A DNA stretch of 64,000 nucleotides. Source: Opitutia bacterium (lineage in GTDB: Bacteria > Verrucomicrobiota > Verrucomicrobiia > Opitutales > T3Sed10-336). Below, piece by piece: positions 48,790-63,469 of this stretch. Under the pieces are notes generated by a model. It worked only from the letters and a program-made list of their open reading frames with translations. It had not been told where the DNA came from and did no database searches. Made by a program: the position numbers and the translations under genes. The DNA lies in the NCBI GenBank assembly GCA_050506795.1, contig JBJHCF010000004.1, forward strand, positions 1-64,000, in the 5' to 3' direction. The first letter of the stretch is position 1; each line of letters opens with the position of its first letter.

Positions 48790-48882
48790 GGAGAGATGGC
48801 TGAGTGGCCGAAAGCAGTGGTTTGCTAAACCGCCGTACCGCCAAAAGCGGTACCGAGGGTTCGAATCCCTCTCTCTCCGCCA
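48790..48882 (+). tRNA. tRNA-Ser(GCT)
   Basis: GGAGAGA acceptor stem, anticodon arm GTGGT-TTGCTAA-ACCGC, long variable arm, GGTTCGAATCC, 3' GCCA. Confidence 0.96.
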
Positions 48883-48920
48883 TTTGTGATGGGCTTTTGC
48901 CTTAGATTTGCCAAAATGGA

Positions 48921-50282
48921 ATGGCAAATCTGAGAAAAACCATGGCAAAACCTAAGTTCAAGATCACCCCGTTCACCAACCCCAGCGGCCAGCGCGTTTA
49001 CCGTCTGTCTGGCACGCTCAACGGCAAGAGGATCCGTGAGAATTATCCGACTCGCCCCGAAGCCGTTGCAAAGCGTCAGGAATATGAGGTCGAGTGGCTC
49101 AACGACCATCCCGAGGGCCGCACGATCTGGACCACCTTGACTCCTGAGGAGAATCGCGACGCGGTCACCGCAATGAATTCCCTCAAGATGAATGGCGCTC
49201 CCTACTCGCTCAGCTTCGCCGTCAGTTACTGCCTGGAGAACTACCGGCCGCCGGAACAGGAGAAATCGATCAGCGAGGCAGCGGACGAGTATGTCAAGAA
49301 GCGGGACCGCGACTGCGTTCGCGAATTCATCTCCCAGGCGCAATTTCGCTCGATCAAATCCGAGATGCTTTGGCTCAAGAGCAAGTTCGGGAGCACGCCG
49401 GTTTCGGCCATCACCGTGGAAAAATTCCGCGACTACCTCGAAACTCCGCGCAACCGGCCGCGCAGCCGTCTCGTGAAAAAGGAGGTCACCGCTCCCAAGA
49501 CCTGGAACAACCGTCGGGGCCTTCTCTCGACCTTCTGTCTGTTCTGCGTCGAGCGCGGTTACCTCGCGCAAAATACGATCGCGAAGGTTCCCCAATTCAA
49601 GATCAACGGTCGCAAGTCCATGGCGAAAACGCTAACCGTCGATCAGGTCAACGAGCTGATGGAATACCTCGAAGCCTATGACGGGTCACCTATCCGCCGC
49701 CTCAAGGAGCCCCAGCCCGCCGGCTTCCTGGTTCCCTTCTTTGCTCTCGCTCTCTTCGCCGGCATTCGTCCGGATGCGCTCTACGGCGAAATGGGTAAGC
49801 TCCAGCCGGAAGACATCGACCTGAACATGGGCGTTGTCCGGGTTCGGCCCGAAGTCTCGAAGACCAACGAAATGCGCGTGGTGGCCATTCAGCCAAATCT
49901 TCGGCTGTGGTTGGAGAAATATCCGGTGGAAAAGTTTCCGCTTCTCCCGGGAAAGAACATCGTTCGCATCCTCTCCGAGGTCCGCCAGGAACACAAGATC
50001 GGCCATGACGTTCTCCGGCACACTTACATTTCGATGCTGGTCGGCGCTTTTCGTTCGGTCGGCGACGCCGCGCTCCAAGCAGGCAATTCCGAGGCGGTGA
50101 TTCGCAAGCACTACCTCGATTTGAAGTCGGTGGAGGAGGCCGATCAGTTTTGGCAGATCATTCCTGCCGGGACTGAGCTTCCCAAGAACTTCAAGAAAAA
50201 GGACGGTCGATACGCCTTTTTCAACAAACCGGAGAAGGACTCCGAAGGCGCAGAAGAAGCTGAAGAGCTGGCGTCGGTCTAG
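48921..50282 (+). CDS. Tyrosine recombinase/integrase (alternative start 48942)
   Basis: FAGIRP (R), SKT (K), HDVLRHT (HxxR), GNS, KHY (Y). Confidence 0.92.
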   Translation: MANLRKTMAKPKFKITPFTNPSGQRVYRLSGTLNGKRIRENYPTRPEAVAKRQEYEVEWLNDHPEGRTIWTTLTPEENRDAVTAMNSLKMNGAPYSLSFAVSYCLENYRPPEQEKSISEAADEYVKKRDRDCVREFISQAQFRSIKSEMLWLKSKFGSTPVSAITVEKFRDYLETPRNRPRSRLVKKEVTAPKTWNNRRGLLSTFCLFCVERGYLAQNTIAKVPQFKINGRKSMAKTLTVDQVNELMEYLEAYDGSPIRRLKEPQPAGFLVPFFALALFAGIRPDALYGEMGKLQPEDIDLNMGVVRVRPEVSKTNEMRVVAIQPNLRLWLEKYPVEKFPLLPGKNIVRILSEVRQEHKIGHDVLRHTYISMLVGAFRSVGDAALQAGNSEAVIRKHYLDLKSVEEADQFWQIIPAGTELPKNFKKKDGRYAFFNKPEKDSEGAEEAEELASV

Positions 50283-50321: not shown

Positions 50322-50492
50322 CTACTTATCCAGCTCCTTCCTGATTCGAATGATGAGGTAAACGATCGTGGTGAGGCCTACGGCGATGCCGACGACCAGG
50401 TGAATGCGGTCGAGCATGACCGTTCCGACGGTGCCGAAGGCGCCGATCCAGACGGGGCGGTCGTGGAGGAGAAAGGCGAGTGCTTCTTTCAT
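50322..50492 (-). CDS. Small membrane protein, holin-like
   Basis: 56 aa MKEALAF...; hydrophobic helices with basic C-terminus; ATGA-coupled to the upstream gene. Confidence 0.55.
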   Translation of the reverse strand: MKEALAFLLHDRPVWIGAFGTVGTVMLDRIHLVVGIAVGLTTIVYLIIRIRKELDK

Positions 50493-50983
50493 GCGGTCGA
50501 CGTCGAGGGCGTTGGCTGAAAGAGTCCGATCCGGTAACCCCAGTAGAGGAAACCGGCTCCGGCGATGAGGATGAGGGCAACCGCCGGGAACCAGGTCTGG
50601 CCGAAGATCTGCGCGAGGATCGCCATGAGGATGCCGCCGAGGGCGAGCGTAAGGCCGGTTCGAAAGTGCCAGCCGGTGAGAAGGAGACCGCCGATCAGGG
50701 AGAGGCCGCCGAGGATTGTCCAAAGCGACAAGCCAGCAACCGAGGGAACCGCAACGGCGCGACTCTGGCCGGTGGATGTCGTGATTTCGATTTGGTCCCC
50801 TTTCCGTCGAAGCGTGACATGGGCGGGCGTCTCGGGATTGGCGGGCTGGAGCGTGGCCACGGTGGCCGCTGGAAGGCCGTTTGCATCGTGCAGAGTGACG
50901 GTGGCATGGCCTGGCGGCGTGGGCGCGGTCATGCAGCCGCTGAGGGTGGCGGCGAGGAGGAGGAAAAGGAACGCCGGTTTCAT
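50489..50983 (-). CDS. Lipoprotein with C-terminal transmembrane helices
   Basis: Lipobox LSGC, ~70-aa soluble part, then about 3 TM segments. Confidence 0.65.
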   Translation of the reverse strand: MKPAFLFLLLAATLSGCMTAPTPPGHATVTLHDANGLPAATVATLQPANPETPAHVTLRRKGDQIEITTSTGQSRAVAVPSVAGLSLWTILGGLSLIGGLLLTGWHFRTGLTLALGGILMAILAQIFGQTWFPAVALILIAGAGFLYWGYRIGLFQPTPSTSTA

Positions 50984-51071
50984 GCAACCAGCGTGGAGGT
51001 CGCCAGTTCCCCGGGCGAGCCGGAGAATTAGCTAAAATTGTGCATTTTTAACTACTGCGGCCCAAATGGAT

Positions 51072-51947
51072 TCAGAGTTCGTCAAGGGATTGCCTAAGGT
51101 GGCCCAATGTCTCAACTAGGCTTTCAATGCGGTTAAGATCTCGTTCCGAGAACCGCGCATCGTAGAGGGAATTACCGTCTGCCCCATCAATCCGAGTAAC
51201 CTCAACGGTTAAAACCAAATCGTCGCGATCCCGCGGAGCACTTGCCCACGGTCCGAACATGTTGGGTGAGAGCCTCCAATTGGCTGACTCGCCCGGTTCA
51301 AGTCCTCCCCGAATTGAGTAGTTAAAGGACTCGTCGACCCAAGGCACCGCTCTGCCTGGGGTGGCCAAGACCCCTTGGAAATATGCGCGAGAGATTGCAT
51401 GGCTTGTCTCATTCCGGACCGATAGCTCGATTACAGGATCACGAGTGAAGCCTGTCTCGCTGAATGAAAACCGAGCACTCTCGACAACAAAAGCACGTAA
51501 GCTCTGGCGATCGGACTCGGCTTTTTGCTTCTTCTCCTCCAATTGCTCAAGTTCATTGCGAATATCCTCAATCCTGCGCATGAGGCCCTCACGCTCACGC
51601 TGACGCCTTTCCTCAGCCCGCTGACGTTCGCGTTCGCGCTCTTCTTCGAGGATTCGTTCTCCGGCGGCTAAAATTTCGTCTACTGTTTTCCCGTCGAGGC
51701 GCTCACGCATCCGCTGCTCGGCTGACTCGGGGTTCGCGGCCAAGGAGAAGAGGTTCTCACCTTCAAAAGCAATTGCCAAGAGAGCTGCATCAAACTTCTC
51801 CTGCTCTTCCTCCGAAAGCGAGGCCTTAGCGCGTTCGAGGGAACGTTCCATTGCTGCCTCCGAAGAACCGTCGATGCGGCGAGAGTCACCGCACGCGGTT
51901 AACAGGCATAGTGAAATGAGGGGGCCAAGAAACAAAAGGATTCTCAT
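51072..51947 (-). CDS. Accessory lipoprotein (DUF6694-like N-terminus, coiled coil, beta-sandwich)
   Basis: Lipobox LTAC, IDGSSE..M..SL...LS.EEQEKF, long E/R-rich coil. Confidence 0.7.
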   Translation of the reverse strand: MRILLFLGPLISLCLLTACGDSRRIDGSSEAAMERSLERAKASLSEEEQEKFDAALLAIAFEGENLFSLAANPESAEQRMRERLDGKTVDEILAAGERILEEERERERQRAEERRQREREGLMRRIEDIRNELEQLEEKKQKAESDRQSLRAFVVESARFSFSETGFTRDPVIELSVRNETSHAISRAYFQGVLATPGRAVPWVDESFNYSIRGGLEPGESANWRLSPNMFGPWASAPRDRDDLVLTVEVTRIDGADGNSLYDARFSERDLNRIESLVETLGHLRQSLDEL

Positions 51948-52179
51948 CAGATGTTTGGATTCTGGTTAAGGGACCTACCATGCTCTCCGGATGACCGTCA
52001 AAGGAAAAGGGATCCATCAAGCTGGGGCGGCATCGCCGGGGCGGAGCCCTGGGAGATAGGAGGCGGAGCCGTGTCTCTGCGACCGGGGCCGATCGTCCTC
52101 GCCCGAATGCCGATGAGACCTTTGGCAGAAATCGCGCTGCCATGTTTCACCCCTTAGAAGCAAATTGCGGCTGTAAGGA

Positions 52180-53490
52180 TCAGGCGCGGCCGAGGGTGAC
52201 GTTGTCGTAGTAGAGCGGCGTGTTGGTCTGGATCAGCGAGCCGAGATGGATCGTGTCGAAGGGGCCGGGAGCGTAGGCGAGATTTGTTCCGTTTGGGTCG
52301 AGCTTTCCATCGACGTAAACGTCCAGGCTGCTGTGACGGATAATCACCTCGAACTGATGCCAGCCACGGGAGCGCGGGGCGTCGAGCTGGATCCACCCTG
52401 ATCCGCCAACGTTGCGGAATTGGTATTTCGGGAGGCTGTAAGTCCCGGCAGTGACGGTGTTGTGAAGGCCGGCGGCGAAGATCACGAAAGAGTTGTCGCG
52501 GCGAAGCTCGGCGTATTCGCGGCCGGACTTTGGGTCGCTGGAGTCGTAGGGATCGTAGAAGCGGAAGGACCATTTTAGCGGCGCAGCATCGGTTGCGGAG
52601 ATCGGGTCGAACTGGGTCTTGCGGAGGCCGCCGGAGGAGAAGAGAACCAGGTTACCGGTCGCGAGGTTTTGCGCCGTAGCGACAGGAGCGCCGTCGGCGG
52701 CGCCGTAAGGCGTGTAGCTACCGTCTGGTCGCCACCTTGGGAGAGTCCATCCAGAGGGGCCTTTGTCTCCTTTCTCGTAGGAGATGATGTAGCTGTTATC
52801 GGCGGGCTCGAACCACATGAAGATGTCGTCCCGGCGGAAGCTGGCTCGGTTGTTGAAGAGCCCGTTGTAGTCCCAGGTTCCGTTGCCCTCCTCGGGAGTG
52901 ATGAAGCCGGTGACTTCAAGTGTGCTTCCCGGATAGGCGTTCGGGTCACGATCGAGGATCGAGACCGGGTTTTGGTTGTGCCACGGTTGCGAAGGCTCGG
53001 TCTCGGGCCAGGCCGCGTTAAAGGTGACGGGATTGTCGAGGTCGTAGATCTGAAATGTTTCGAGGAAATGCGGCCAGCGGAGGTCGATCATATCAACCTC
53101 GGCGGACCAGAGCATCGTGTCGTCGGGTTCCCCAGTGACGTGGAGGGATAACGCGCCGGGTGCGTCAGGCGCGGGAATAAGCGAAACTTCGCCACCGCTC
53201 CCGACCGGGCCAAGCTTTTGCTGGGCGCTCAACGAGATCACACCGGCGTCGTTGCGGGCAAGAACGAGAATTGATGCTCCGTAGGTGGTCGTGAAGGCCT
53301 CCGTGCGACCGGTGACGCGGATGCTCAGCAAACGCACCGCCCCGGCCGGGATGGTGAGGCGGTGGCGACCGGAGATAAGGAGTTCGGTCGCCTCGGTGCC
53401 ATAGCTCACGCCATGGAACTGGATTGGTTTTGTGGGCGTGCTGGCGGGAACAACCTCGGGCGGGCGCGGTGGAATGAGCGGCGGGAACAT
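52180..53490 (-). CDS. Putative virion spike/receptor-binding protein
   Basis: 436 aa beta-rich modular protein downstream of capsid genes; C-terminal ConA/LamG-like GWHQFEV....LDVYVDGK; no signal peptide. Confidence 0.5.
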   Translation of the reverse strand: MFPPLIPPRPPEVVPASTPTKPIQFHGVSYGTEATELLISGRHRLTIPAGAVRLLSIRVTGRTEAFTTTYGASILVLARNDAGVISLSAQQKLGPVGSGGEVSLIPAPDAPGALSLHVTGEPDDTMLWSAEVDMIDLRWPHFLETFQIYDLDNPVTFNAAWPETEPSQPWHNQNPVSILDRDPNAYPGSTLEVTGFITPEEGNGTWDYNGLFNNRASFRRDDIFMWFEPADNSYIISYEKGDKGPSGWTLPRWRPDGSYTPYGAADGAPVATAQNLATGNLVLFSSGGLRKTQFDPISATDAAPLKWSFRFYDPYDSSDPKSGREYAELRRDNSFVIFAAGLHNTVTAGTYSLPKYQFRNVGGSGWIQLDAPRSRGWHQFEVIIRHSSLDVYVDGKLDPNGTNLAYAPGPFDTIHLGSLIQTNTPLYYDNVTLGRA

Positions 53491-53539
53491 TGGCGAGAAT
53501 TGGAGATTGGAAATTTGAGATTGAAGATCGTGTTCCGGG

Positions 53540-53833
53540 TCAGAGGAGTTGGGTGATTCGGAGAATCGCGTCGGCGGCTGTGGCGCGGATGAATCTGGCC
53601 TTGGTGTAGAGTTCCCGGGGCCAGAGCACTGCGCCTCCTCCGACCGGGAAGTAGTGGCCGTGATTGATGGTCGGCGTCGAGCCGTCGAAGGTCACGCGGA
53701 CGGGTCCGTTGTCGACGGAGACGAGAATTTGCCAGGTGTCCGAATGGAGGGCTGGCAACGCCACGGAGGCGCCCGACACCGCAACCGCGATGTCGGGGCC
53801 TTGTGGGTTTGGTTTAACCAGGTGGGCGCTCAT
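53540..53833 (-). CDS. Small beta-rich putative virion protein
   Basis: 97 aa MSAHLVKP...VRVTFDGSTPT..HG immediately after the capsid gene; start reassigned within the longer ORF call. Confidence 0.6.
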   Translation of the reverse strand: MSAHLVKPNPQGPDIAVAVSGASVALPALHSDTWQILVSVDNGPVRVTFDGSTPTINHGHYFPVGGGAVLWPRELYTKARFIRATAADAILRITQLL

Positions 53834-53844
53834 GGCAGGCAGGC

Positions 53845-54762
53845 TCAGGTGACGCTGACCCGGCGGGCGCAAACCTTGGAGGTTACCTTGATGTCTTCGG
53901 TCCAATCCACCGCGAGGATGTCCGAGCGGTTGCTTTCGGCGCGGTAGATCCGGACGATGTCCACTCCCCCGCCGCGGGTGCGGAAGGTTTTCATGAACGA
54001 GGGATCGTAGACGCTCGGCGCTGCCTGGGCGATGAACAGGTAAAGCTCCGAGCCGATGATGTTGACGGCGTTCTTCGCCTTGCCGGGCTTTGCCGTGTCG
54101 GCGGACATGACGCCGACGCGGATGTCCAGGTTCGGGTTGAGCAGAAGGCTCGCGAACTGGGTCAGGGTGACGCCGACGCTGGCCGCTCCCGGGAAGCGTT
54201 TCACCACGGCCGGGTTGTGCCGGATGCGGCGCCACGCCGGAAGACCGATCGCCATGCGATTGGGCATCTGGCCGGTCTGGGTGGCCAGCTCTTCGATGAG
54301 TTGGTCGAGCTCGGCGACCGGGTCGTTGGTGTTGCTCGCGCCGTCCCATTGCCCCATGCCGCTGACGGCGGGAACGCTGGAAGCGGCGATCGAAAAGACC
54401 TTCGCTTCGTGGGCGACCTTGGCCCCGGAAACGAGGGTCCGGGTCTTGGCCTTTTCGAGGCCGAGCGGGTCGCCTTCTCCCGCTTGCCGGCGCTCGTGGT
54501 CGTCAATGGCGATTTCGAGCGCGTTCGGGTTGCAGTTGAAGAACGGATCCTCGGCTTCGAACTCCAGCCGGCGGGCGGGACCGCCGATGGCGCGGCGCGT
54601 ATCCGGGTTCTGGAACGCGTTTTTGTCGGAGAAGTCCTTGTATTGCCCGTTGGCGGACTGGACAACGACTTCCGGCGCGAGGAAGCTGGCGAGGGACGGC
54701 GAGCCGTCCTGCGAGAGCCCTCGGGCGTAGTTGGTGAGGGTGATGTTGAATTTAGAGGACAT
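53845..54762 (-). CDS. Major capsid protein (HK97 fold)
   Basis: 305 aa; LTNYARG..LAPEV.V, WD....DP, PNRMAIG..AW..IRHNP; position after protease and decoration genes. Confidence 0.8.
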   Translation of the reverse strand: MSSKFNITLTNYARGLSQDGSPSLASFLAPEVVVQSANGQYKDFSDKNAFQNPDTRRAIGGPARRLEFEAEDPFFNCNPNALEIAIDDHERRQAGEGDPLGLEKAKTRTLVSGAKVAHEAKVFSIAASSVPAVSGMGQWDGASNTNDPVAELDQLIEELATQTGQMPNRMAIGLPAWRRIRHNPAVVKRFPGAASVGVTLTQFASLLLNPNLDIRVGVMSADTAKPGKAKNAVNIIGSELYLFIAQAAPSVYDPSFMKTFRTRGGGVDIVRIYRAESNRSDILAVDWTEDIKVTSKVCARRVSVT

Positions 54763-54814
54763 AGCTGTGGAATTTCAGATTTGAGATCGGAGATTGGAAA
54801 CGAGTGGTTGCGGG

Positions 54815-55213
54815 TTACGGTGCGATGAGGACGGCCTCGATCTTCTCTTCGGCGACACCGCCCTCCAGCGCCATGGCAACGCGTGGCGTGGTCGGTGCGT
54901 CGCTGCTGGCGACGAAGGCAACTTCGTCGTTGTCTTCGAAAAGACCGAGAAGCGTGCCGGTCTGGGTGACCGGGCCGAAGAGCTTCACGCGGACGGTTCC
55001 GGAGAAGCCTCCCCGCGCCGGGGCGACGGTGACTTGCTCACCGGCTTTCCCGCCTTTGAGAAGGACGCCAAACGGCGTCTGCTCGGCGTTGGTCAGAAGA
55101 GTGATCTCGTTCTGACCGGTGACGATGACTGGATAGCCCTCCTTGCCGGTAAGATCGATGGCTGCCTTGAATGGCAGGATAGCGTTTTCGCGAACAATGC
55201 CTACTTGGCTCAT
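54815..55213 (-). CDS. Capsid decoration/cement protein
   Basis: 132 aa; A..DL..K.GY.V, FGVL...G.AGE.V.V, A.ALE......IEA.L. Confidence 0.7.
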   Translation of the reverse strand: MSQVGIVRENAILPFKAAIDLTGKEGYPVIVTGQNEITLLTNAEQTPFGVLLKGGKAGEQVTVAPARGGFSGTVRVKLFGPVTQTGTLLGLFEDNDEVAFVASSDAPTTPRVAMALEGGVAEEKIEAVLIAP

Positions 55214-55231
55214 AGCTGTGGATTCCTTTCT

Positions 55232-56350
55232 TTAGTTGAACAGTTCCGGGGCCTCGGCCTGGGCCTTGGCGAAGATGGTGTCGAAGGTGGCGGCCGGGTG
55301 AGCGGCGCGGAGATCGTTCAGCTTTTTGAGCTGAAGGGCCTCCTGGTTCTGGACGGGGCCGGTGCCCGCATCGCGTGCGGTGACGATGGTCGCGAAGGCG
55401 GGATTGACCGGAAGGGCCTCCAGGGCCTGCACGGCTTTCCCTTCATCGCGGATGAGAGCGTCGACCCAAAAGGTCTTGGCGTTTTCGTCCTTTGGCGCGA
55501 CGCGGCCGGCCTGAATGGCGGCATCGACGCGGGCCTCGGCTTTGGCTCGGATGGCGTTGTCACGCTCGGTTTCGAGAGCGGTCAGGCGTTCCTTCGCCGC
55601 CGCGAGATCGGCGCTGCTGGATTGCAGCGCGGTAACTTTGGCTTTCACCTGGGCGATGATGTCGGCTTCCTCCGTGGCGGAGGCCTCGACCAGCCCGAGT
55701 GTCACCAGATTCTTCAGTAGTTCTTTCATGGTTACGTGGTCTTCAGTTGCGGGTTGTGGATCTTGTCCCTTGGCGAACAAGGGCTGGATTCGTTTGAAGG
55801 CGGCGCGGTTTACAAGTCCGCCCATGTTGGTTTCGCTCCCGATGACGCGGCCTGCGGCATCGAGGAGAAAAGTCGGAGAAAAGCGCCGAAAGGCGCGGTC
55901 CTGGATGGCTTTCTTGCCGACGCCGGACCATTCGATCTTGGCGCGAACGCCGCCGGTCTTCGGGTCGTCGCCTCCCCAGAAGATTTTGACCGGCCATGCC
56001 GCGGCCTCGCGGTCGTCGTGATTGAAGTCGAAGAAGGGCTTGTCCTCGGCCCCGGCTGCGGCCAGCGCAAGCTGGCGGGTTAGCCAATCGGAGAGCGCGG
56101 TTGCCGTGGCCTGGCTGACCTCCACGTCGAGTTCGACCGGTTTGCCGGCGCGGGAGGCGCGAATGCGGTGACGGCCGGGCGGCATGTATTGGATCTCTTC
56201 GGGAAGTTGGTCCTCGGCCGGCTCTGGAAGAGCGACGGAGAATGCAGCTTTTACGGGCTCGCCCTTGGGCGGCGCGTAGGCCATGACGCCGTCGGGGCCT
56301 TCGGTCCATCCGGGATTGGAGGTTGGGGAGTTGTGATCGTGTGCGGTCAT
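55232..56350 (-). CDS. Mu gpI-like prohead protease with C-terminal scaffold
   Basis: MPPG, DFNHD...AAAW, IEWS..G...I..RAFRRFSPTF, GGLVNRAAF; helical C-terminus VDAAIQAGRVAP. Confidence 0.85.
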   Translation of the reverse strand: MTAHDHNSPTSNPGWTEGPDGVMAYAPPKGEPVKAAFSVALPEPAEDQLPEEIQYMPPGRHRIRASRAGKPVELDVEVSQATATALSDWLTRQLALAAAGAEDKPFFDFNHDDREAAAWPVKIFWGGDDPKTGGVRAKIEWSGVGKKAIQDRAFRRFSPTFLLDAAGRVIGSETNMGGLVNRAAFKRIQPLFAKGQDPQPATEDHVTMKELLKNLVTLGLVEASATEEADIIAQVKAKVTALQSSSADLAAAKERLTALETERDNAIRAKAEARVDAAIQAGRVAPKDENAKTFWVDALIRDEGKAVQALEALPVNPAFATIVTARDAGTGPVQNQEALQLKKLNDLRAAHPAATFDTIFAKAQAEAPELFN

Positions 56351-56640
56351 TTCGGTTTCCAGATCAGAGCGATAGAACAGCGGCAGTTGGGATGAACGGG
56401 GGGAAAGCGTGTCCAATCCTTGCCGTAAAGAGTGCCGTGGAGAGCGCCGCATACAGAGCAAGTGCCTTCATCGAAGTCAGTGATCCAGACGTAGGTCTGG
56501 TTTGGATCGAGCGGAGGCGGCGGCTCGCCGTCGGGATAGGTGTAGAACCATCCGTCAGGGCCTTTAACCCAACCGGGATGGCGTTCCGATTCCCGAAGCG
56601 GTTCTTCCGCGTGTAGTGCTTGTTTGGCGACGTCATTCAT
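56347..56640 (-). CDS. Miniature Mu gpF/SPP1 gp7-like head morphogenesis protein
   Basis: W...D..TCSVCGALHG..Y...FPPVHPNCRCS; only 97 aa; coupled to neighbours. Confidence 0.75.
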   Translation of the reverse strand: MNDVAKQALHAEEPLRESERHPGWVKGPDGWFYTYPDGEPPPPLDPNQTYVWITDFDEGTCSVCGALHGTLYGKDWTRFPPVHPNCRCSIALIWKPK

Positions 56641-58019
56641 TCAGTCCCGGGTCGAGGGTGAAGGGATTTTGGATTTTCGATTGCGGATTGCGGATTTGGA
56701 TTCGCGGGTGGGTTGTAGAGCACGTCCTCTTTGCCTGGAGCGGGAACCTTGTGGCGTTCGTAGAGCCACTGGCGGGAGACCGGCAGGGCCATATCGACGA
56801 AGAGTAGCTTGTCGCGCTCGACGAGCTCCTTGTCACGGGTAAGGCGCGGGATCTCGACTTCGATGTAGGGAAGCTCTTCGAGGTCGCCGTAGTTGAGCTG
56901 GATGATGGCGGGAATGAGCTGGTGATTGAGAACCTCGGCGACGTGGTTGGCGTAGCCTTCAAAGAGGTCGAGTTCGACTTCGCGGTGAACGCGGCCAAGA
57001 GCTTGCGTGCCTCCGCTTGCGGGAGTGTCGGACGTGAGAGTCTGGCCGAGGAAAAGAAGGTCGCATGCCTTGTCGGCGATGATCATCAGGCGCTCGTTCG
57101 GATCAGTGGGACCGGCTACGCCCGGAACGATGCCGTTGGACATGATGTTGATGTCGGTCCCTTTCGGGAACGCTCCCCAGGCGGATGCTCCCATCTGCTG
57201 GAGCATGTTGGCGATCAGTTGAACCTGACTGTCGGGGATGTGCTCGTCGTAGGTGGCGTAGCGGAGCGGGATCCCGAAAAGCTCCGTTTTCGAAAGCATC
57301 CACTCATAGCCAAGGAGGCGACCGAGCCAGAGCGGAGCGAGGGCGCGAAGCTGGGCGCAGGCGCCGGGGTTCGGAATGGTCGGCGGAAAGACCGAGAGAA
57401 GGAACTTGTTCGGGTAGCGGTCAAACGAGTGTGCTTCGTGGCGGTTTCGCTCCGGGTATAGCATCAGCCGGCCGGCGTGGGGATTGTGCATCGAGATGTC
57501 GAAGCCGAGGCAGGAGTAAGGAACGCGGCGCGTGCCGGTCGGGAGGATGAGTCGGTCACGAATTGCCCAATCAACCTCCAGCACGGTGACGCCCACGGCG
57601 ATGGAATCGACGAGGTTGCTGATCGTTTGGGCGAGGTTGATCTTGTTTTCGGCGAGATTCGTCGCGCCGCCGTGGAGAGCGGTTTCGATGAGGGAGGCGC
57701 GTTCGATGGCGCTGGCGGTTGGCTCCTTCCCCTTCGGACTCCATGGCTGAATGTTCCATGGGAGCTTGGTGACACTGACCTTGATCTTGTTGAGGTTCGA
57801 CCGGAGGCGCGGCCAGGTGTCGAACATGATCGAGAAAAGCTCCTGCTGACGCTCAAGGTCTCCCTGCAGTCCGGCGTCGAGCATGGCGCCCATGGTGTCG
57901 GGGTCGATGGAGCGACCCGAGAATATGTGACGGAAATCGAGGCCGGAAGGCTGGATCACCGGCTTGAGGAGCTTCCGTGGAGCGGCGTCTTTGGCTTTCG
58001 TGAGAAACGGGATTCTCAT
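56637..58019 (-). CDS. Portal protein, Mu gp29/DUF935-like
   Basis: GDL..Q.ELF, G..VLEVDW, E.FG.P.R...Y, LGQTLTS...GG.QALG.VH.EV, LN.QLI. Confidence 0.88.
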   Translation of the reverse strand: MRIPFLTKAKDAAPRKLLKPVIQPSGLDFRHIFSGRSIDPDTMGAMLDAGLQGDLERQQELFSIMFDTWPRLRSNLNKIKVSVTKLPWNIQPWSPKGKEPTASAIERASLIETALHGGATNLAENKINLAQTISNLVDSIAVGVTVLEVDWAIRDRLILPTGTRRVPYSCLGFDISMHNPHAGRLMLYPERNRHEAHSFDRYPNKFLLSVFPPTIPNPGACAQLRALAPLWLGRLLGYEWMLSKTELFGIPLRYATYDEHIPDSQVQLIANMLQQMGASAWGAFPKGTDINIMSNGIVPGVAGPTDPNERLMIIADKACDLLFLGQTLTSDTPASGGTQALGRVHREVELDLFEGYANHVAEVLNHQLIPAIIQLNYGDLEELPYIEVEIPRLTRDKELVERDKLLFVDMALPVSRQWLYERHKVPAPGKEDVLYNPPANPNPQSAIENPKSLHPRPGTE

Positions 58020-59392
58020 CAGTTACGCCCTCCAAAGGTTGCGCCCGCCGTGTAGATCGAGCGGAAGCGGGTTGGCGTCGGGACGAACCGCGAGGGATTG
58101 CCGCCGATCTGGAAGGCGTTCGGTTTTGGCGCGGATCCGGTTCCGCCGTGGCGGGCTGCGGCATGCAGGGCCAACGCGAGGGCGGTGGAGCGGTCGGCGT
58201 GGCCGTCGGCCGTTCGTGCGGCGGTGTATCGAATGTTTCCGGACGGGGAAACGATCCGTTGCAGGCTGGCCAGATCGTCGCGCAAGCGTGCGTCGAGAGG
58301 GATTTTGATCGTGCCTTCCTGGAAGTGTTTCTTGGCGCGAATGAACAGCTCGCGTTTGCTCTCCGCAGAAAAGGTAACGGGGTCGAGCTTGTAGTCGCCG
58401 AGGGTATCGGCCAGGTGCTCGGAAATCGGTCCGCCGATACCCGTCGCGTCGATGGCGGAATAGGTGGCGCGTTGCAGGCGCGGCGTGAGAGCCGCTTCCT
58501 GCTCCGGGAAAGGGACGCCGTCGAGGATTAGGATTTCGCGGGTCCAGAACGTGCCGTTGACCGCTTCGACCGTCCAGCAAACGGTGAGGTCGCGCTTGCG
58601 GCCGATGTCGACGCCGACGAAAACTGGGTTTCCGGTGAGAGCGTTCCAATCGTGGGAAGCAGCGGAATCCTCGGCAGCAGTGATGAGATCGCGGGGGAAG
58701 ACCTGGGCGCTCTCTGCCATGAACTGGCACTCGAACTCCTGCGACCATCCATCAGGATCGTTCAAGTTGGCGCGAAGCTCGTCGATGTTGACGGCGAGTC
58801 CGGCCTCTGCCGCATCGTAGATGGTGGTTTTGTGACGGGAGAAGTCGGCTCCGTTTTCCCACAGGTCGAAGTATTTGTTGTTCATCCCGGCCGGCGTGGA
58901 GATCACGCGCAGCTTGAGCCGACCGCGAAGGGGATTGGTGATGATCGGATAAACCGCCCTCCAGATGTCCTCGGGCTTTTCGTGGAAGGCGAACTCGTCC
59001 AGGACGAGATTGCCGGAGTAGCCACGGGCGGTGGAGGGATTGGCCGGGAGCGCGATTAGACGAGCACCATTGGGAAAGCGGCACTGGCTGGCTTTCGTTT
59101 CGGGGCGGTATTCCTGGCCGGTTTCGAAGGAGATCGCATCGCAGAAGACGGCGGCGGCCTGGTGGACCTTGGCCATAAATTCGAGAGCCTGCCGTTCACC
59201 GGCGGAGAGGATCACCCAGTCGCCACCCGTTTCGAGTGCATCGGCGACGACCTCGAACGCGGTCGCGAGCGATCCGCCGATTTGCCGGGATTTGAGCCAG
59301 ATCTTGAAGCGGGTCCGGTCGTTGACCCAGCTGCGCTGATACGGGAGCAGGAGGTCGAAGGGAGATACCTTCAATTTCGGACGTTTGCTCAC
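58019..59392 (-). CDS. Terminase large subunit, Mu gp28-like
   Basis: LLPYQ..W, KSRQIGGS Walker A, LVLDEFAF Walker B, ISTP.G, GVDIGR..D, DATGIG, HADR. Confidence 0.92.
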   Translation of the reverse strand: MSKRPKLKVSPFDLLLPYQRSWVNDRTRFKIWLKSRQIGGSLATAFEVVADALETGGDWVILSAGERQALEFMAKVHQAAAVFCDAISFETGQEYRPETKASQCRFPNGARLIALPANPSTARGYSGNLVLDEFAFHEKPEDIWRAVYPIITNPLRGRLKLRVISTPAGMNNKYFDLWENGADFSRHKTTIYDAAEAGLAVNIDELRANLNDPDGWSQEFECQFMAESAQVFPRDLITAAEDSAASHDWNALTGNPVFVGVDIGRKRDLTVCWTVEAVNGTFWTREILILDGVPFPEQEAALTPRLQRATYSAIDATGIGGPISEHLADTLGDYKLDPVTFSAESKRELFIRAKKHFQEGTIKIPLDARLRDDLASLQRIVSPSGNIRYTAARTADGHADRSTALALALHAAARHGGTGSAPKPNAFQIGGNPSRFVPTPTRFRSIYTAGATFGGRN

Positions 59393-59889
59393 TCCTTAGC
59401 TCCTACTGCTCCAAGTCGGTCGCGCCAGCTTTGGAGAATTTCACGCTGGTCGGCCTGGTTGATGTTAACCTCGGTCTTGACGAGGGCCGTCGGGCGGTCG
59501 GCGTAGACGTCCGGCTTGTGGCTCTTGAGGAGGAAGATCAAGCAGGCGTCGGAAAACTTGCGCTTGTATCCACAAAGGTTGCCTTTGATGTCAAAGACCG
59601 GCTCTTCCCAGCCGTCGACCGCACGGCGATGGAGCTCCTGTTCGGCGGATTCGATCCGCTGGACGTTCTTAACGCGGTCGCGTTCAAGTTGGGCGGCCTG
59701 GAGGCGCGGCGTCAGTTCGGGGCGACGGGTGAGGTTCCTGTAGAAGTTGCGCGGATTTAAGCCCTCGCGCTCAATAGCTTCGTAGGTGGGTTGGCCGTCG
59801 AGGATGTTTGCGAGGACGCGATCAAAAAGCGCTTCCGAGAATTTCGAAAGCCTGCCGGCTCGTTTTGCTACTGCCGTTTGCCTTGCCAC
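59389..59889 (-). CDS. Terminase small subunit
   Basis: N-terminal HTH, E.EL.RRAVDGWEEPVF...YKRKFSD..LIFLLK..KP..Y; overlaps terL start. Confidence 0.75.
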   Translation of the reverse strand: MARQTAVAKRAGRLSKFSEALFDRVLANILDGQPTYEAIEREGLNPRNFYRNLTRRPELTPRLQAAQLERDRVKNVQRIESAEQELHRRAVDGWEEPVFDIKGNLCGYKRKFSDACLIFLLKSHKPDVYADRPTALVKTEVNINQADQREILQSWRDRLGAVGAKE

Positions 59890-60029
59890 GAATTAATGGC
59901 ATGACATACGGGGGGCTAGGACAACTTGGGAAGTTGTGTAAAAGTTGCTGGATTTAACTGTATTTGTGCACGGTCGCGAAAACCGGAAAGTTCGTGGCCA
60001 TGTTCAGGAGAAAAGGTAGGTTGTGTGTG

Positions 60030-60506
60030 ATGTCTGAAAAATCGAGCAGGTGTTGTGATGAGGCGTCCAAAGGTCCCTTCGATGAAGTTCTGGGCTGTCC
60101 TCGTTGTGGCCGCAAGGGTCGCCCGGTCTCCGAATTGACGGTAAAGCAGCAGGTAGCACCGGAACATTTGGAGGCGGCAAGCGGCGAAGGGAATCAGTTC
60201 TGCGGGACTCCGGATTGCGCGGTGGTGTATTTTGTCGCTGGGGGGCAGGTCTTCGAGCAGAAGGATCTACGGCAGAAAGTTGGGTTGAAGGACCGTTCAG
60301 ATCCGTCCCCGGTTTGCTACTGCTTTGGGTTTACAAGGAGGATGGTGGAAGATGAGGTTCGGTCGACTGGCAGGAGCACGATTCCGGACCGCATTGCCCG
60401 CGAAGTGAAGGCAGGAAACTGTGCGTGTGAGGCGCGGAATCCACAGGGGAGTTGTTGCCTTGGGAATGTGACGGCGGCGGTGAAAGAGGCGGAACGTGGG
60501 GGTTGA
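60030..60506 (+). CDS. CopZ-N-like Zn-binding/BFD-like [2Fe-2S] metallochaperone
   Basis: CPRCG, FCGTPDC.VVYF, PVCYCFG, CACEARNPQGSCCLGNV. Confidence 0.85.
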   Translation: MSEKSSRCCDEASKGPFDEVLGCPRCGRKGRPVSELTVKQQVAPEHLEAASGEGNQFCGTPDCAVVYFVAGGQVFEQKDLRQKVGLKDRSDPSPVCYCFGFTRRMVEDEVRSTGRSTIPDRIAREVKAGNCACEARNPQGSCCLGNVTAAVKEAERGG

Positions 60507-60509
60507 TCG

Positions 60510-62490
60510 TTGTTGGACCCTCGCGGGGCCATAAACGCCGCGACGTAAAAACGCGTGTAGAGGCGCGGAGCGCCGCTGGCAACGACGAGCGGGCGTTAGC
60601 CCGCGAGGAGGCGCAGCGAGGCCGTTGTCGGCCGAGCGGAGGCCGCGGGGCGAGGCCGCGGAACTGGGGGCGCGGAGCGCCTAGGCGTTCTATTGGCGCG
60701 GCGAAGCCGCTGGTGATTGCAGGCGCGATAGCGCCGTGCGAAGCTGCGAAGCAGCGTAGCGAAGGGCGCTGCCAGGGGCCGCCCCAGGCGCTGGCTGAGC
60801 CAGCGCGTCAGCGCGAGGCGAAACAGCGCGGGGCCACCGCGCCGGGAGGCGGGGGGAAGGCGCCCCTTCCATTCACATTAAGGGGCGCCGCCTGGCGTCG
60901 AGGAGATCAACGGTAGCGATAGCGAGTGAAACGGGGGAGGTTCGCGACGGCGAGGGTCGTGTGGCCGTTCCGCCGACCAGGGCGGGGGCTGGGGGATATA
61001 CTGATTTCAGGCCCCGAGCGAAGCGAGAGCGAATGCGTGGGCCGTGCAACGACGAGTCTTCGAGGAGGCGCAGGGAGCCTTAGCGACCGAAGTTCGCCCG
61101 GGTTAGGCGGGCGAAACTGGGGGCCGGTCCGGATAGCGGCTGGTGAGGGCTCTGCCACAGACGGGTCCCGGGTGGATGGGGTGAGCCCTCGCTGCCTGCG
61201 CCGGGGCGGCCTAGGCCCTACTCTACTGGAGCGAAGCGACAACTGACTCGAGCCCCCGGAGCGGAGCCGGAGCAGACGCCCAGTCCCGCAAGCGCACATG
61301 ATCATCATATGTCAAAAATCCGCCGGAAGAAGGAATACCTGGACTGATGGAGGAAAAGTGAACACGTCAGGATCTTCGGCATATGATCCTCATGTGCGGT
61401 CCCGCTTTTTGGGACGAACTGGAGGGAAGCAGGAAGCATGACACCGGCTTGCCGGTGGCGCGATGCCTGCGAGGGCGTCTGTTCCGGCGGAGCGGAGGGG
61501 GCTTTCCGGGGTTGGGTGTGAGTGAGCTTGCGAACGAACTGGTAGAAGTTTCGAGCGGGAGCGAGCGTCAGCCTTCCCGGCGATTGAGGGTCCAAAGCGG
61601 TCGGCAGCGCGTCGCCGGGGCGAGGCGGATGGGTTGGCGGAGGGCGTTTCCCGGCGTGGCGCTGCTGGTGACTTTCAGCGCCGGAAGGAGCGGTCTGAGG
61701 CGGAGTCTTCGGAGCCTCTGTCCGCGACTCGGCGCCAGAGGGGCGTTCGATTGCAACCGGGGCGAGCAGTCGCTGGCGGATGGTGACCAGAGCGTAACGG
61801 AGCGTCCGGCGTAGCGCAGGGTGGAGCGTAGGGGTGCAGTAGTCCGGTTGCCCGAAGGGTCGCGTAACACGAGGGGACGCGGTGAGCGAAGCCTGTCGCC
61901 GTTAGGCGTCTGGCGAAGCAGCGGCCAATCGTGTTACGCGCCGGACTTCTGCATCCCGAAGCGGAACCCGGAGCGGAGTCGGAAAGCGGCGTGGAGCGAC
62001 GGGAGCGATCGGCCAGCGTCTGCGGTTGGATTGTCCCGAACCGAGCGACCGGAACAGTCGCTCCGGATGCGAGGTATCGAGCAGAAGGAGTGTCTGTGGA
62101 GGGAGCGGCCGGATTACCCGTCAGGGTTGGCGAGGGCGTTCGATTGGAACGGGATCGAGCAGTCTCGGGCCCGCTGCGAGGGAGACCGGGCGAGCGATTA
62201 GCCGCCCAGGTTCGACTAAGCGAAGGGGCCGAGTCTGCGGTTGGATTGTCCGAGGACGAGCGACCGGAACAGTCGCTCTGGAGTGAGGAACGAATGGAGG
62301 AGCGTCTGTGGAGGGAGCGGGATTGCGCCCGTCAGGGGTGGGACGTTGACTTGCAACCGAATCGAGTGGTCGCTGAAGGAAGGGGCGGCGGCGCTAAGGG
62401 CCGTTGCTGCCTTTGGCAGCTGATGGCCCGTGCGGCGACGAACCGACCGGAAGCGTCCACGGTTGGATTACCCGGGGCCGTTCGCTCCGT
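60510..62490 (+). other. ~2 kb non-coding, highly structured region (ssDNA element or large ncRNA)
   Basis: No credible ORF; nested long-range inverted repeats, GNA-loop hairpins and a ~215-bp internal duplication. Confidence 0.7.
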
Positions 62491-62955
62491 TTATTGCACG
62501 CCGTGGCGGTTAGCCGCTTGCTCCTCGCGGGCATGTTCCGCGAAGCTATCGGCCAAAGCCAAGACCTCTTCCGGGGTTGGGCTTCTATCGGTTTCAGAGA
62601 AGGCCACCGGACATACCAGCCAGTGAACCGCACGCAAAAGATGGTCGGAGATGAGGGAGGCTGAGCGGCCACGAACCGCAAATTCCCCAGTGTTGAAAAG
62701 CTCCATGTGACGAGACAAATACGTGCAGACCGTGGCAATTGCCGAACCCCGCTCCAATCTGTCGATGTCGTTCGAGTAGGTCTCGTGCATGTAATCTCTG
62801 ATCTCGAGGACATCCGTTACATAATCACGCTTTGTTCCTTCCGGACAAGGACGCCTGACCGCTTCAAGATCTCTCACAAATTCGGAGAACGGATACTGGT
62901 AGCGCGAATTGGCCACTGCGGAGCTCTTCTGACTGTCGCTTTCTGCTCGATTCAT
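62491..62955 (-). CDS. Hypothetical protein
   Basis: 154 aa from MNRAESDS; protein-like composition; same strand as neighbours. Confidence 0.55.
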   Translation of the reverse strand: MNRAESDSQKSSAVANSRYQYPFSEFVRDLEAVRRPCPEGTKRDYVTDVLEIRDYMHETYSNDIDRLERGSAIATVCTYLSRHMELFNTGEFAVRGRSASLISDHLLRAVHWLVCPVAFSETDRSPTPEEVLALADSFAEHAREEQAANRHGVQ

Positions 62956-63016
62956 GCGGATTGAAGATGTGTCCCCTCGCGGGCAAGGCAAACCTTTGTT
63001 GAGGGCGCTGCAGCAA

Positions 63017-63289
63017 CTACAGGCGCTTGCGCCAATCGGGATTCCTGGCAATCCAGTCGAGGGCGGCGGCGAGCGTTGTGCGGTTGGCGGGCATTGGGAA
63101 GCCGGCTCTGCGCATTCGATAAACGTAGGTGGGATGATGTTTCAATTGCCAGGCCAGTTCCTTGGCAGTGAGCAAGGGTCCGGTCGTGAGGAGATCGACG
63201 GAATTGAGATTCTCCGCGTCCCGCTTCGTCGATGCGTGGCGTCGCTCGATAGAATTCTGGGCTTCGGATTTGAGATTGGAAGTGGTCAT
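63017..63289 (-). CDS. Small HTH DNA-binding protein (AlpA/excisionase-like)
   Basis: LLTAKELAWQLKHHPTYVYRMRRAGFPMP...ALDWI. Confidence 0.7.
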   Translation of the reverse strand: MTTSNLKSEAQNSIERRHASTKRDAENLNSVDLLTTGPLLTAKELAWQLKHHPTYVYRMRRAGFPMPANRTTLAAALDWIARNPDWRKRL

Positions 63290-63377
63290 TGCGAACTGGA
63301 GATTTGAGATTCGAGATTTTGGATTTGAGAAATGCCCTCTCTCGGAGGGTGGAATTGGAAAGTTCCCTGGCCAGTCT

Positions 63378-63469
63378 CGCGACAGTGACACTCCCCTAAA
63401 GGGGAGGTGTCATGTGTCGCGGTGACGGGTTTTGCGATGTGTCGCAATAGGTGTCGCGCAAAGTGTCGC
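63378..63469. promoter_or_regulatory. Putative replication origin: palindrome plus GTGTCGC iterons
   Basis: GTGTCGC at 63414, 63439, 63451 and 63463; imperfect inverted repeat 63378-63421. Confidence 0.65.

Follow-up and report, generated by a model that had tools for sequence, protein, structure and literature searches.

Very large structured non-coding elements have rarely been described from bacteria and phages, and every known example has opened new biology. Replication origins that operate through RNA provide a second precedent. ColE1 uses an RNA primer, Pol I and an exposed ssiA site (accessible text of PMC3167613), and the RNA-based origins of extrachromosomal mycobacteriophage prophages occupy about 600 bp, are free of initiator proteins and lie beside parABS (Wetzel et al. 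2020; accessible text of PMC7157519). The non-coding RNAs of UG27 reverse transcriptases form variable arrays of structure-conserved, sequence-diverse modules in prophages (available part of bioRxiv 10.64898/2026.09.22.753630). Here we describe an element at positions 60510-62490 of a window of 64,000 nt, the first 64 kb of a 157.8-kb contig (JBJHCF010000004.1, GenBank assembly GCA_050506795.1) from an Opitutia bacterium. Comparison with related loci shows the region to be a copy of an element that is conserved, strand-specific and composed of several domains, is predicted to be folded, and belongs to small temperate phages and related integrated elements in Opitutae-labelled genomes.

Like GOLLD, ROOL and OLE, this is a large, non-coding, prophage-borne element with many conserved helices, no coding signal and a function that is not evident from sequence. 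It differs from them in its greater length (1.2-2 kb), in a variable number of modules of ~170 nt, in its fixed place between terS and replication genes, in its occurrence in Opitutae-labelled genomes and in being known here from sequence alone. An initial annotation of the window had compared the region with GOLLD and ROOL while recognizing it as neither, and Rfam agrees: a search of 59800-63200 with Rfam 15 at E ≤ 10 gave no match, whether to GOLLD, ROOL, OLE, HEARO, group I/II introns or ribozymes, and 14 related loci gave none at the gathering score. The variable set of structurally conserved, sequence-diverse non-coding modules in a prophage recalls the UG27 arrays, but Pfam and PHROGs detected no reverse-transcriptase domain in the open reading frames (ORFs) scanned in contig 48.9-80.7 kb.

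Folding was assessed in two halves (60510-61500 and 61501-62490), on both strands and against 20 dinucleotide shuffles each. Under RNA and DNA parameters alike, the real sequence folded better than every shuffle (0/20 as good throughout). With RNA parameters, the z-scores for the first and second half were -5.84 and -7.98 on the plus strand and -4.88 and -3.36 on the minus strand; with DNA parameters they were -7.46 and -4.86 (plus) and -6.94 and -3.82 (minus). The five long, partly nested stems named in the initial annotation are all present: 61251-61281 with 61473-61503 (24 Watson-Crick pairs and one G.T of 31), 61293-61321 with 61370-61398 (24 and one G.T of 29), 61805-61847 with 61941-61983 (30 and three G.T of 43), 61861-61872 with 61929-61940 (12/12) and 60859-60868 with 60880-60889 (10/10). 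Three of the five were recovered independently by an inverted-repeat search (I1, I2 and I4), and the minimum free energy structure retains the 61251-61503 domain under both parameter sets. The plus strand of the region contains 40.7% G, 26.4% C, 17.9% A and 14.9% T. The G-richness first remarked on is thus real, but it is not peculiar to the region, since positive GC skew spans the whole element and the whole window; only the excess of A over T is confined to it, and this purine bias is its distinctive compositional trait.

We found no sign that the region encodes protein, in keeping with the original claim that it holds no credible ORF. Stop codons occur in all six frames, there is no GC periodicity at 60600-61800, and the internal ORFs (154, 133, 143 and 231 aa) match nothing in Pfam or PHROG. 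When these four, the adjoining 186-aa ORF and a CopZ-like ORF were compared with about 76 related loci by tblastn, no match was obtained. Variable sites in seven aligned units are spread evenly over the three codon phases (0.57/0.61/0.55, against 0.32/0.19/0.85 for terS), only 33 of the 153 pairwise indels are divisible by three, and no single frame carries a coding signal. The region is not a tandem or CRISPR-like array either: a tandem repeat search (TRF) reported three trivial arrays of 23-32 nt, and the modules are 73-83% identical and spaced 207-393 nt apart. No other copy was found in its own genome.

A search of IMG/VR with TerL yielded 28 loci at 64-71% identity, 14 of which share by blastn one conserved block of ~85 nt (window 60813-60897). 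A profile of the motifs M1 and M2 (table 1) matched 24 of the 28, always on the strand opposite to terL, just upstream of terS and ~0.85-1.0 kb upstream of terL; in three of the four loci that gave no match, the available upstream sequence is shorter than 850 nt. A search pattern built on the block returned loci from viruses (15), metagenomes (33) and genomes (19), of which six look by eye like chance matches. Of the 19 genome records, 13 bear the label Opitutae, Opitutaceae, Opitutus, Puniceicoccaceae, Pelagicoccus or Rariglobus. Two or three copies of the unit are present in some genomes, and a cultured Pelagicoccus isolate carries two of the loci (L090 and L092). DNA searches of 40 relatives and 400 genomes of the order gave only chance-level matches of 24-123 nt, and blastn against 50,697 phage records gave none. 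A looser module-pattern scan of IMG/VR was discarded, as the covariance model confirmed only one of its 35 loci, already known. Primary sequence of the unit diverges fast outside a few islands. In the relative from run X5, the unit is better conserved than terS, with 52 substitutions and 11 gaps in 1262 nt (4-5%; window 60518-61779) against 67 differences in 575 nt of terS (11.7%).

Relatives conserve the element with compensatory base-pair changes, as measured by RNAalifold-type counts on 7-24 sequences. For 14 copies of the ~170-nt module, RNAalifold predicts a 13-pair hairpin with double changes in eight pairs. Across 24 distinct sequences, nine of the 13 pairs show compensatory changes, 96.3% of cells are paired (76.2% after shuffling, a level of 96.3% being reached in 0/500 shuffles, and 32-54% with slid partners) and the covariation score is 0.432 (0.153 shuffled, 0.055-0.135 slid), although this alignment was fitted to the covariance model, which favours structure. 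The hairpin contains 10 G.U cells, and its arms, read from the alignment, are interrupted by conserved tandem G.A mismatches. In the M1 hairpin, one pair occurs as GC in nine sequences and CG in seven, and two others include U.G wobbles (4/16 and 5/16). A four-pair helix between the M1 tail and M2 has one pair that is CG in 13 sequences and GC in three, together with an invariant U.G; in the AT-rich hairpin, comparison of six relatives shows compensation in five pairs. For the whole unit, a consensus fold of seven relatives over 1442 core columns reached -277 kcal/mol with 297 pairs, 60 of them compensated, on the forward strand; the reverse complement gave -185 kcal/mol, 238 pairs and 50 compensated, and three column shuffles gave -81 to -93 kcal/mol, 174-192 pairs and 19-20 compensated.

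Because of these compensatory changes, the gap between forward and reverse folds and the better conservation of the unit than of terS, the element is, as far as alignments can tell, under selection for pairing within the plus strand. Relatives keep G.U rather than A.C pairs on that strand, as the initial annotation had anticipated from its G.T mismatches. We consider it very probable that the element functions as a folded single strand and represents a new family. Folding, conservation and compensatory changes all support the proposal that the region is a functional single-stranded nucleic acid, for which an origin or priming site, a single-stranded DNA promoter, a packaging scaffold and a large non-coding RNA had been listed as candidate functions.

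A unit with fixed ends was defined from the alignments, starting on the 5′ side at AAAAACGCGYG (window 60545). GNA-triloop or related small hairpins come first, followed by the hairpin H2, M1, M2, an AT-rich long hairpin and one to three ~170-nt modules; in relatives a terminal motif, M3, is followed by an abrupt drop in GC content and variable cargo genes. The unit measures 1217-1860 nt in eight relatives and about 1.95 kb in the window, where the order of parts differs, an M3-like motif being followed by ~900 nt more of modules (table 1). The sequences of set A4 were picked and anchored with the 5′ boundary motif, so the invariance of that motif is partly by construction; the conservation of M2 in 16/16 A4 sequences was not imposed by the selection pattern. 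The M1 G-tract is invariant across aligned relatives. H2 reads CGCGGG-GGCTAGG-CCCGCG-GAAAYTGG in relatives, its stems changed yet complementary, and as RNA would present the loop GGCUAGG followed by GAAAYUGG; the window has two copies, at 60643 and 61094. The AT-rich long hairpin bears AGGAAUAC (window 61293-61398), and that of the relatives carries GCTAGGAATACGACGC with compensated stems, the two being equated by eye. M3 (CCCCAAGCGAGCGGAGCGAGCGCAGGGG) marks the transition from GC-rich to low-GC sequence in eight relatives and contains a covarying 4-bp stem. Two further resemblances were rejected. For tRNA-like T-loops (GTTCGATT) in the modules, Rfam finds only the tRNA at 48790 and the flanks are unpaired; against a CsrA-type GGA sponge, homologous hairpins differ in the base of the triloop (GAA, GGA, GTA, GCA).

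Table 1. Features of the folded region and its surroundings (window coordinates unless marked contig; CM, covariance model).
Feature	Position	Strand	Basis or remark
TerL	58019-59392	-	T4-type Terminase_6 domains (Pfam)
TerS	59389-59889	-	start at 59889 (Pfam/PHROG scans)
Conserved block between terS start and unit, GCTGGATTTAACTGTATTTGTGCACGG	59900-59976		by eye, against 14 relatives carrying TGGGTTTAACGATWTAGGCGCGG at the same place
CopZ-type zinc-binding/BFD-like ORF, outside the conserved unit	60031-60506	+	Pfam zf_CopZ, 1.6e-17
5′ boundary motif GTAAAAACGCGTGTAGAGG (consensus AAAAACGCGYG)	60545-60563	+	AAAACGCG invariant in 16/16 of A4
Hairpin H2 copy 1, CCGCGG-GGCGAGG-CCGCGG then AACTGG	60643-60667	+	alignments
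M1: GCGCGG/CCGCGC hairpin, G-tract GGGAGGCGGGGGGAAG (60844-60859), hairpin GGCGCCCCTT/AAGGGGCGCC, tail GCCTGG	60826-60897	+	
M2, CCAGGGCGGGGGCTGGGGG..ACTGATTTCA	60977-61009	+	predicted pairing with M1 tail
Module-type apical loop motif GCAGGGAGCCTTAGCGACCGAAG	61069-61092	+	partial match to CM R1
H2 copy 2, TCGCCCG-GGTTAGG-CGGGCGA-AACTGG	61094-61120	+	blastn to L073/L074/L049; direct repeats D4, D7, D11
Long hairpin domain	61251-61503	+	outer 61251-61281/61473-61503; inner AT-rich 61293-61321/61370-61398; AGGAATAC at 61331-61338
M3-like motif, GTGAGTGAGCTTGCGAACGAAC ... CGAGCGGGAGCGAGCG	61518-61575	+	M3 of relatives closes the unit
Degenerate ~170-nt module copy	61647-61782	+	CM R1 20.7 bits, E 6.6e-4; repeat D1
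Long hairpin with purine-purine internal loops	61805-61983	+	perfect inner stem 61861-61872/61929-61940
Module A, long hairpin, AGCGACCGGA.. / ..GGAGGGAGCGG arms, tandem G.A loops	62001-62175	+	CM R1 120.4 bits; covariation
Module B	62216-62382	+	CM R1 111.8 bits
Partial third module	62438-62479	+	CM R1 10.5 bits, E 0.04
Weak terminator-like hairpin and TTTATT at 3′ edge	62473-62499	+	terminator scan, 2 sites vs 3.2 expected
186-aa ORF	62491-63051	-	probable start is Met 32 codons in; without homologue in related loci
124-aa ORF, helix-turn-helix-like by eye	63017-63391	-	only C-terminal ~52 residues conserved (19 loci)
PolA (family-A DNA polymerase)	contig 65513-67348	-	Pfam/PHROG

The element around the unit is integrated at a tRNA. 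The tRNA at 48790-48879 is the sole match to Rfam at gathering score in the whole window and is followed by an integrase gene (48921-50282); a 28-bp direct repeat of the tRNA 3′ end (att) at 48857-48884 and contig 80885-80912 indicates an integrated element of ~32 kb. The phage genes other than the integrase lie on the minus strand. On the head and packaging side these encode a major head protein, a Mu-type protease, a Mu-type portal, TerL and TerS (Pfam, PHROG), and beyond the folded region come the 186-aa ORF, a small helix-turn-helix (HTH) protein, an AAA_25 helicase, a family-A DNA polymerase and an excisionase. The folded region thus lies, as first described, between packaging genes (terS and terL) and replication genes (the HTH-helicase-PolA module), and is antisense to every lytic gene. 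The further claim, that 2 kb without genes is unusual in so compact an element, holds only for the absence of genes: the element is ~32 kb long and carries cargo, though among the relatives a whole phage is contained in a contig of 18.2 kb. In this phage family the lytic genes are all on the C-rich strand (window 50322-59889; loci L014, L016 and L023).

Cargo within the ~32 kb (seen between the repeats and in locus L007, 10678-18684) includes genes for an outer-membrane efflux protein, an AcrB-type RND pump, a heavy-metal P-type ATPase and the CopZ-like protein. From their predicted products, the efflux, ATPase and CopZ-like genes look like metal-resistance cargo on a phage-like element. The CopZ-like ORF and the 186-aa ORF are lineage-specific insertions, one per edge of the folded unit, and both are absent from a close relative. 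In X5, 59976-60518 is replaced by 30 nt and homology resumes at 60518; other sequence takes the place of the 186-aa ORF there and in a second relative, from run X3. Both edges of the unit therefore appear, from these comparisons, to be insertion slots for variable cargo genes. The conserved block next to terS possibly holds divergent promoters or regulator sites. The conserved C-terminal part of the 124-aa ORF has no Pfam match and by eye looks like an AlpA/excisionase-type HTH, and the true HTH gene is probably ~60 codons long, from 63017 to about 63200. A phmmer search with the neighbouring helicase against PDB sequences gave no match. At L054 and L094, on Opitutae-type contigs, M1 units stand divergent to type I restriction-modification genes (hsdR, hsdM).

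Many public contigs break 1-80 nt past the M1 G-tract (ends of L015, L017, L030, L031, L060, L079 and L099), which means that the element is often split in metagenome assemblies. Assembly probably fails there at the G6/C6 hairpin, or else at a motif common to co-occurring phages. We did not accept the breaks as evidence of physical genome ends, because their positions differ (+1, +5, +8 and +52 to +77 nt).

An RNA is probably made from the plus strand. Pointing to RNA as the folded strand are its composition, its long-range helices, its conserved wobble pairs and a strand asymmetry of folding that is larger with RNA parameters (second half, -7.98 vs -3.36) than with DNA parameters (-4.86 vs -3.82). 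Pointing to single-stranded DNA instead, the motif GCGNAGC occurs 79 times in nine units and its reverse complement 10 times; in the window region, GCGAAGC occurs seven times and its reverse complement not at all, the genome rate being 0.28 per 2 kb. GCGNAGC forms an extraordinarily stable DNA mini-hairpin, much less stable as RNA, and such mini-hairpins are found at the G4, St-1 and alpha3 origins, at RSF1010 ssiA and at N4 early promoters (accessible text of PMC13037366). Eight public runs labelled as RNA, X3 and X5 among them, contain 14-19% of the sampled words.

What such a strand might do is suggested by its neighbours. Where enough sequence follows, a replication module convergent with the unit lies on its 3′ side, composed of the conserved C-terminal HTH segment (19 loci) and an AAA_25 helicase with either PolA or a DnaG-like primase. 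The module is also present at L098, L090 and L092, in genomes where the TerL query finds no match (G401 and G402), and in two Pelagicoccus genomes the unit lies within an integrase-HTH-helicase-PolA element. At other M1 loci, the place of terS on the 5′ side is taken by genes for DnaB helicase, for a primase of 987 aa or for type I restriction enzymes. Since the replication-gene context is kept in genomes without a TerL match, the unit travels with replication genes more faithfully than with packaging genes. In the window's own clade, Pfam and PHROG scans found PolA and the helicase and no primase or initiator domain. The G6 tracts of M1 and M2 are conserved and the unit has a GC skew of +0.2 to +0.4. 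The skew is one-signed over whole 15-21-kb phage loci, at +0.1 to +0.25 on the non-coding strand, and the G-rich strand is the sense strand of the unit. Skew usually takes the form of a G excess on the coding strand, the opposite of this phage family. The one-signed skew fits unidirectional forks moving in the 5′-3′ direction of the unit. As an origin marker it was rejected, there being no sign switch in six relatives or in the window element by which an origin could be placed.

With G6 tracts and skew, a PolA of its own, no primase or initiator domain detected and a match between the skewed strand and the sense strand, we tentatively favour, at a probability of about 0.35, the reading that the unit acts as an RNA-primed, ColE1-like replication origin through single-stranded forms of the G-rich strand. 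Host RNA polymerase would transcribe the unit rightward from its terS-proximal end, and the folded transcript, rich in the G-tracts of M1 and M2, would form an R-loop by remaining paired with the C-rich template. This annealed transcript would be extended by the family-A polymerase that the element itself encodes, and the displaced same-sense strand, with its GCGNAGC mini-hairpins and hairpin modules, would offer loading or priming sites for the adjacent helicase or for a primase. We infer every step of this route.

The proposed likeness to ColE1 RNA II thus consists of a postulated G-rich folded transcript in a persistent hybrid that is extended by a family-A polymerase, and the likeness to ColE1 ssiA of postulated priming hairpins on the same-sense displaced strand. 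The components that a ColE1-type origin needs, conserved G-rich segments and a family-A polymerase gene, are present (presence being all that is meant here), as are strand-specific GCGNAGC mini-hairpins near replication genes, a feature expected of ssi-type priming. Unlike ColE1, the unit is two to three times longer, its polymerase is phage-encoded, and there is no sequence or Rfam relation; a counterpart of the antisense RNA I was not seen, though no search aimed at it was made. The RNA-based origins of mycobacteriophages also lie in a non-coding region of a temperate phage, with transcription known there and postulated here. Those origins belong to Actinobacteria phages and span about 600 bp, whereas the Opitutae unit is integrated, lies by PolA and helicase genes and spans 1.2-2 kb.

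Several points weigh against an origin of this kind. A length of 1.2-2 kb with long-range pairs and conserved loops is far beyond what such origins need; ColE1 RNA II is ~550 nt. Rightward forks would collide head-on with every lytic gene. The agreement of skew and strand is a one-in-two coincidence. M1 stands beside varied replication proteins (AAA_25 with PolA, AAA_25 with a DnaG-like primase, DnaB, the 987-aa primase) and beside type I restriction genes, a range of contexts that suits a portable accessory RNA just as well as a protein-independent origin. Neither the promoter scan, which gave one weak sigma-70-like site inside the region, nor inspection by eye of the terS-proximal block for -35/-10 boxes revealed a convincing promoter, and there is no clear terminator (2 sites in the scan of the region, 3.2 expected). 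The RNA-labelled runs X3 and X5 hold the relatives beside contigs of 50 and 155 kb, so that DNA is present and neither strand nor level can be read; these RNA-Seq-labelled libraries contain substantial DNA and are not evidence of expression. Finally, most G.U counts come from an algorithm that permits such pairs, and column shuffles also give 121-210. Possibly the unit represents a new class of giant modular folded nucleic acid (1.2-2 kb), specific to mobile elements in Opitutae-labelled genomes, that works as RNA and DNA together, with a transcript that primes PolA independently of an initiator protein and a displaced strand that folds into the same modules to attract helicase or primase; or else it may be a particle-forming RNA.

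Size and domain structure are better explained if the element is a trans-acting ornate RNA of a new class, an accessory of Opitutae phages and mobile elements, as GOLLD and ROOL are of other phages, that folds into a particle of several domains. Because the ~170-nt modules vary in number, they would make the RNA multivalent, so that it could self-assemble or bind a protein or defence factor. At 1.2-1.9 kb, the unit has at least five conserved domains, the pairing of the M1 tail with M2, conserved unpaired motifs and tandem G.A loops. A composition of G>C>A>U resembles that of structured RNAs, and here A exceeds T only inside the unit. The larger strand asymmetry of folding under RNA than under DNA parameters and the occurrence of M1 units in varied contexts, like portable RNA genes, fit as well, and phage-borne ornate RNAs are already known (accessible text of PMC12286853). 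A free-standing RNA gene, however, leaves the constant place by terS and the replication module unexplained, the scan of the region found neither promoter nor terminator for it, and GCGNAGC triloop hairpins are much more stable as DNA (accessible text of PMC13037366). An ornate RNA is thus possible, and almost as likely as the ColE1-like origin, explaining the size and domains better and the fixed position less well.

The position beside the terminase genes raises the question of packaging. M1 would be a cos-type cleavage site with a terminase-binding flank, the remainder of the unit a non-coding virion end, and M1 elements without TerL would be satellites that borrow a helper's terminase, much as P4-like satellites carry their helper's cos. 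The order M2-M1-hairpins-terS resembles cosQ-cosN-cosB-terS, the order in lambda. M1-M2 lies 250-350 nt upstream of terS in insertion-free relatives, adjoins terminase genes in 24 of the 28 TerL loci and is present in elements of genomes without a TerL match. Its G-tract core (60844-60859) also recalls P2 cos, a G-tract core by packaging genes: it matches the 19-nt cosL of P2 (AF063097 positions 1-19, as annotated) at 15/19 positions with one 2-nt gap, by eye. This likeness comes down to two short G-rich strings from phages whose hosts belong to unrelated phyla. The hairpins in and around M1, which enclose the core, covary, and a double-stranded recognition site needs no such pairing. Packaging would account for at most about 450 bp of the 2 kb. 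No fixed DNA ends were seen, the contigs that stop near M1 doing so at differing bases, which looks like assembly breaks at a G6/C6 hairpin, although assemblies do not reveal virion ends. TerL belongs to another terminase family than that of P2 and has T4-type Terminase_6 domains, and enzymes of this type mostly package by the headful. We consider a packaging signal improbable.

Less likely again is an array of ssi signals that acts only as DNA, on the displaced or lagging-template strand, as an entry point for primase or helicase and with no functional RNA. It would account for the excess of GCGNAGC (79 vs 10), for the AAA_25 domain of the neighbouring helicase and for the plus-strand z-scores under DNA parameters (-7.46 and -4.86). 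The G4 origin is about 140 nt. Strand-specific GNA-triloop mini-hairpins by helicase or primase genes are indeed shared with the G4 origin and RSF1010 ssiA, and such mini-hairpins also occur at the St-1 and alpha3 origins (PMC13037366, as far as accessible), but those are single hairpin sets and known ssi signals measure 40-140 nt (ssiA 40 nt, same source), not a 1.2-2-kb, multi-domain array with long-range pairings. Pairs spanning 100-250 nt could form only if single strands were left naked over kilobases. With DNA parameters the two strands differ little in how well they fold, yet wobble-type pairs are kept on the plus strand only.

It is also very unlikely that the unit is a regulatory spacer between early and late operons, in which C-rich antisense read-through or convergent transcription terminates or times terS and the head genes. 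The lytic genes do all lie on the minus strand, with the unit between the replication operon and terS, and a minus-strand transcript would contain 40.7% C and 26.4% G. Covariation and wobble pairs nevertheless favour the plus strand, the unit is kept in elements of genomes where the TerL query matched nothing, and a terminator needs no 1.2-2 kb of conserved domains. That the unit has no function at all, as GC-rich filler, decayed genes or selfish palindromic repeats, might seem to fit its fast divergence outside a few islands and its variable length (about 1 to 2 kb), but is already contradicted by the compensatory changes (present in 60 of the 297 consensus pairs, compared with about 20 after shuffling), and the better conservation than terS in a close relative, the antisense position of M1-M2 upstream of terS in 24/28 TerL-related loci and the lack of a second copy in its own genome make it most improbable.

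Literature searches and look-ups in PMC10690425 and bioRxiv 10.64898/2026.09.22.753630 turned up no description of the element. A 2023 catalogue of viral candidate RNAs (PMC10690425) includes Opitutae virus candidates, with 19 occurrences of 'Opitut' and two rows shown of 75 and 88 nt; its supplement is only partly searchable and may list a short piece of the unit. At the scale of a kilobase, the modular, covariation-supported unit appears from our alignments to be a new family within large phage-borne structured RNAs or RNA-based origins. Its covariation support spans more than 1 kb with no counterpart in Rfam, and the unit takes up roughly a tenth of the genome of small relatives, if the 18.2-kb contig is taken as a whole genome. 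Phages of the source phylum have barely been studied. Should the unit prove to be an origin primed by RNA, initiation of the ColE1 type would also be known from tailed phages with their own PolA, and nature would offer a case in which a single sequence is selected both as RNA and as single-stranded DNA. Should it instead be a trans-acting RNA, it would represent a new ornate class with built-in modular repeats and a good target for cryo-electron microscopy. As the cultured Pelagicoccus isolate carries two copies of the element, the question is directly testable.

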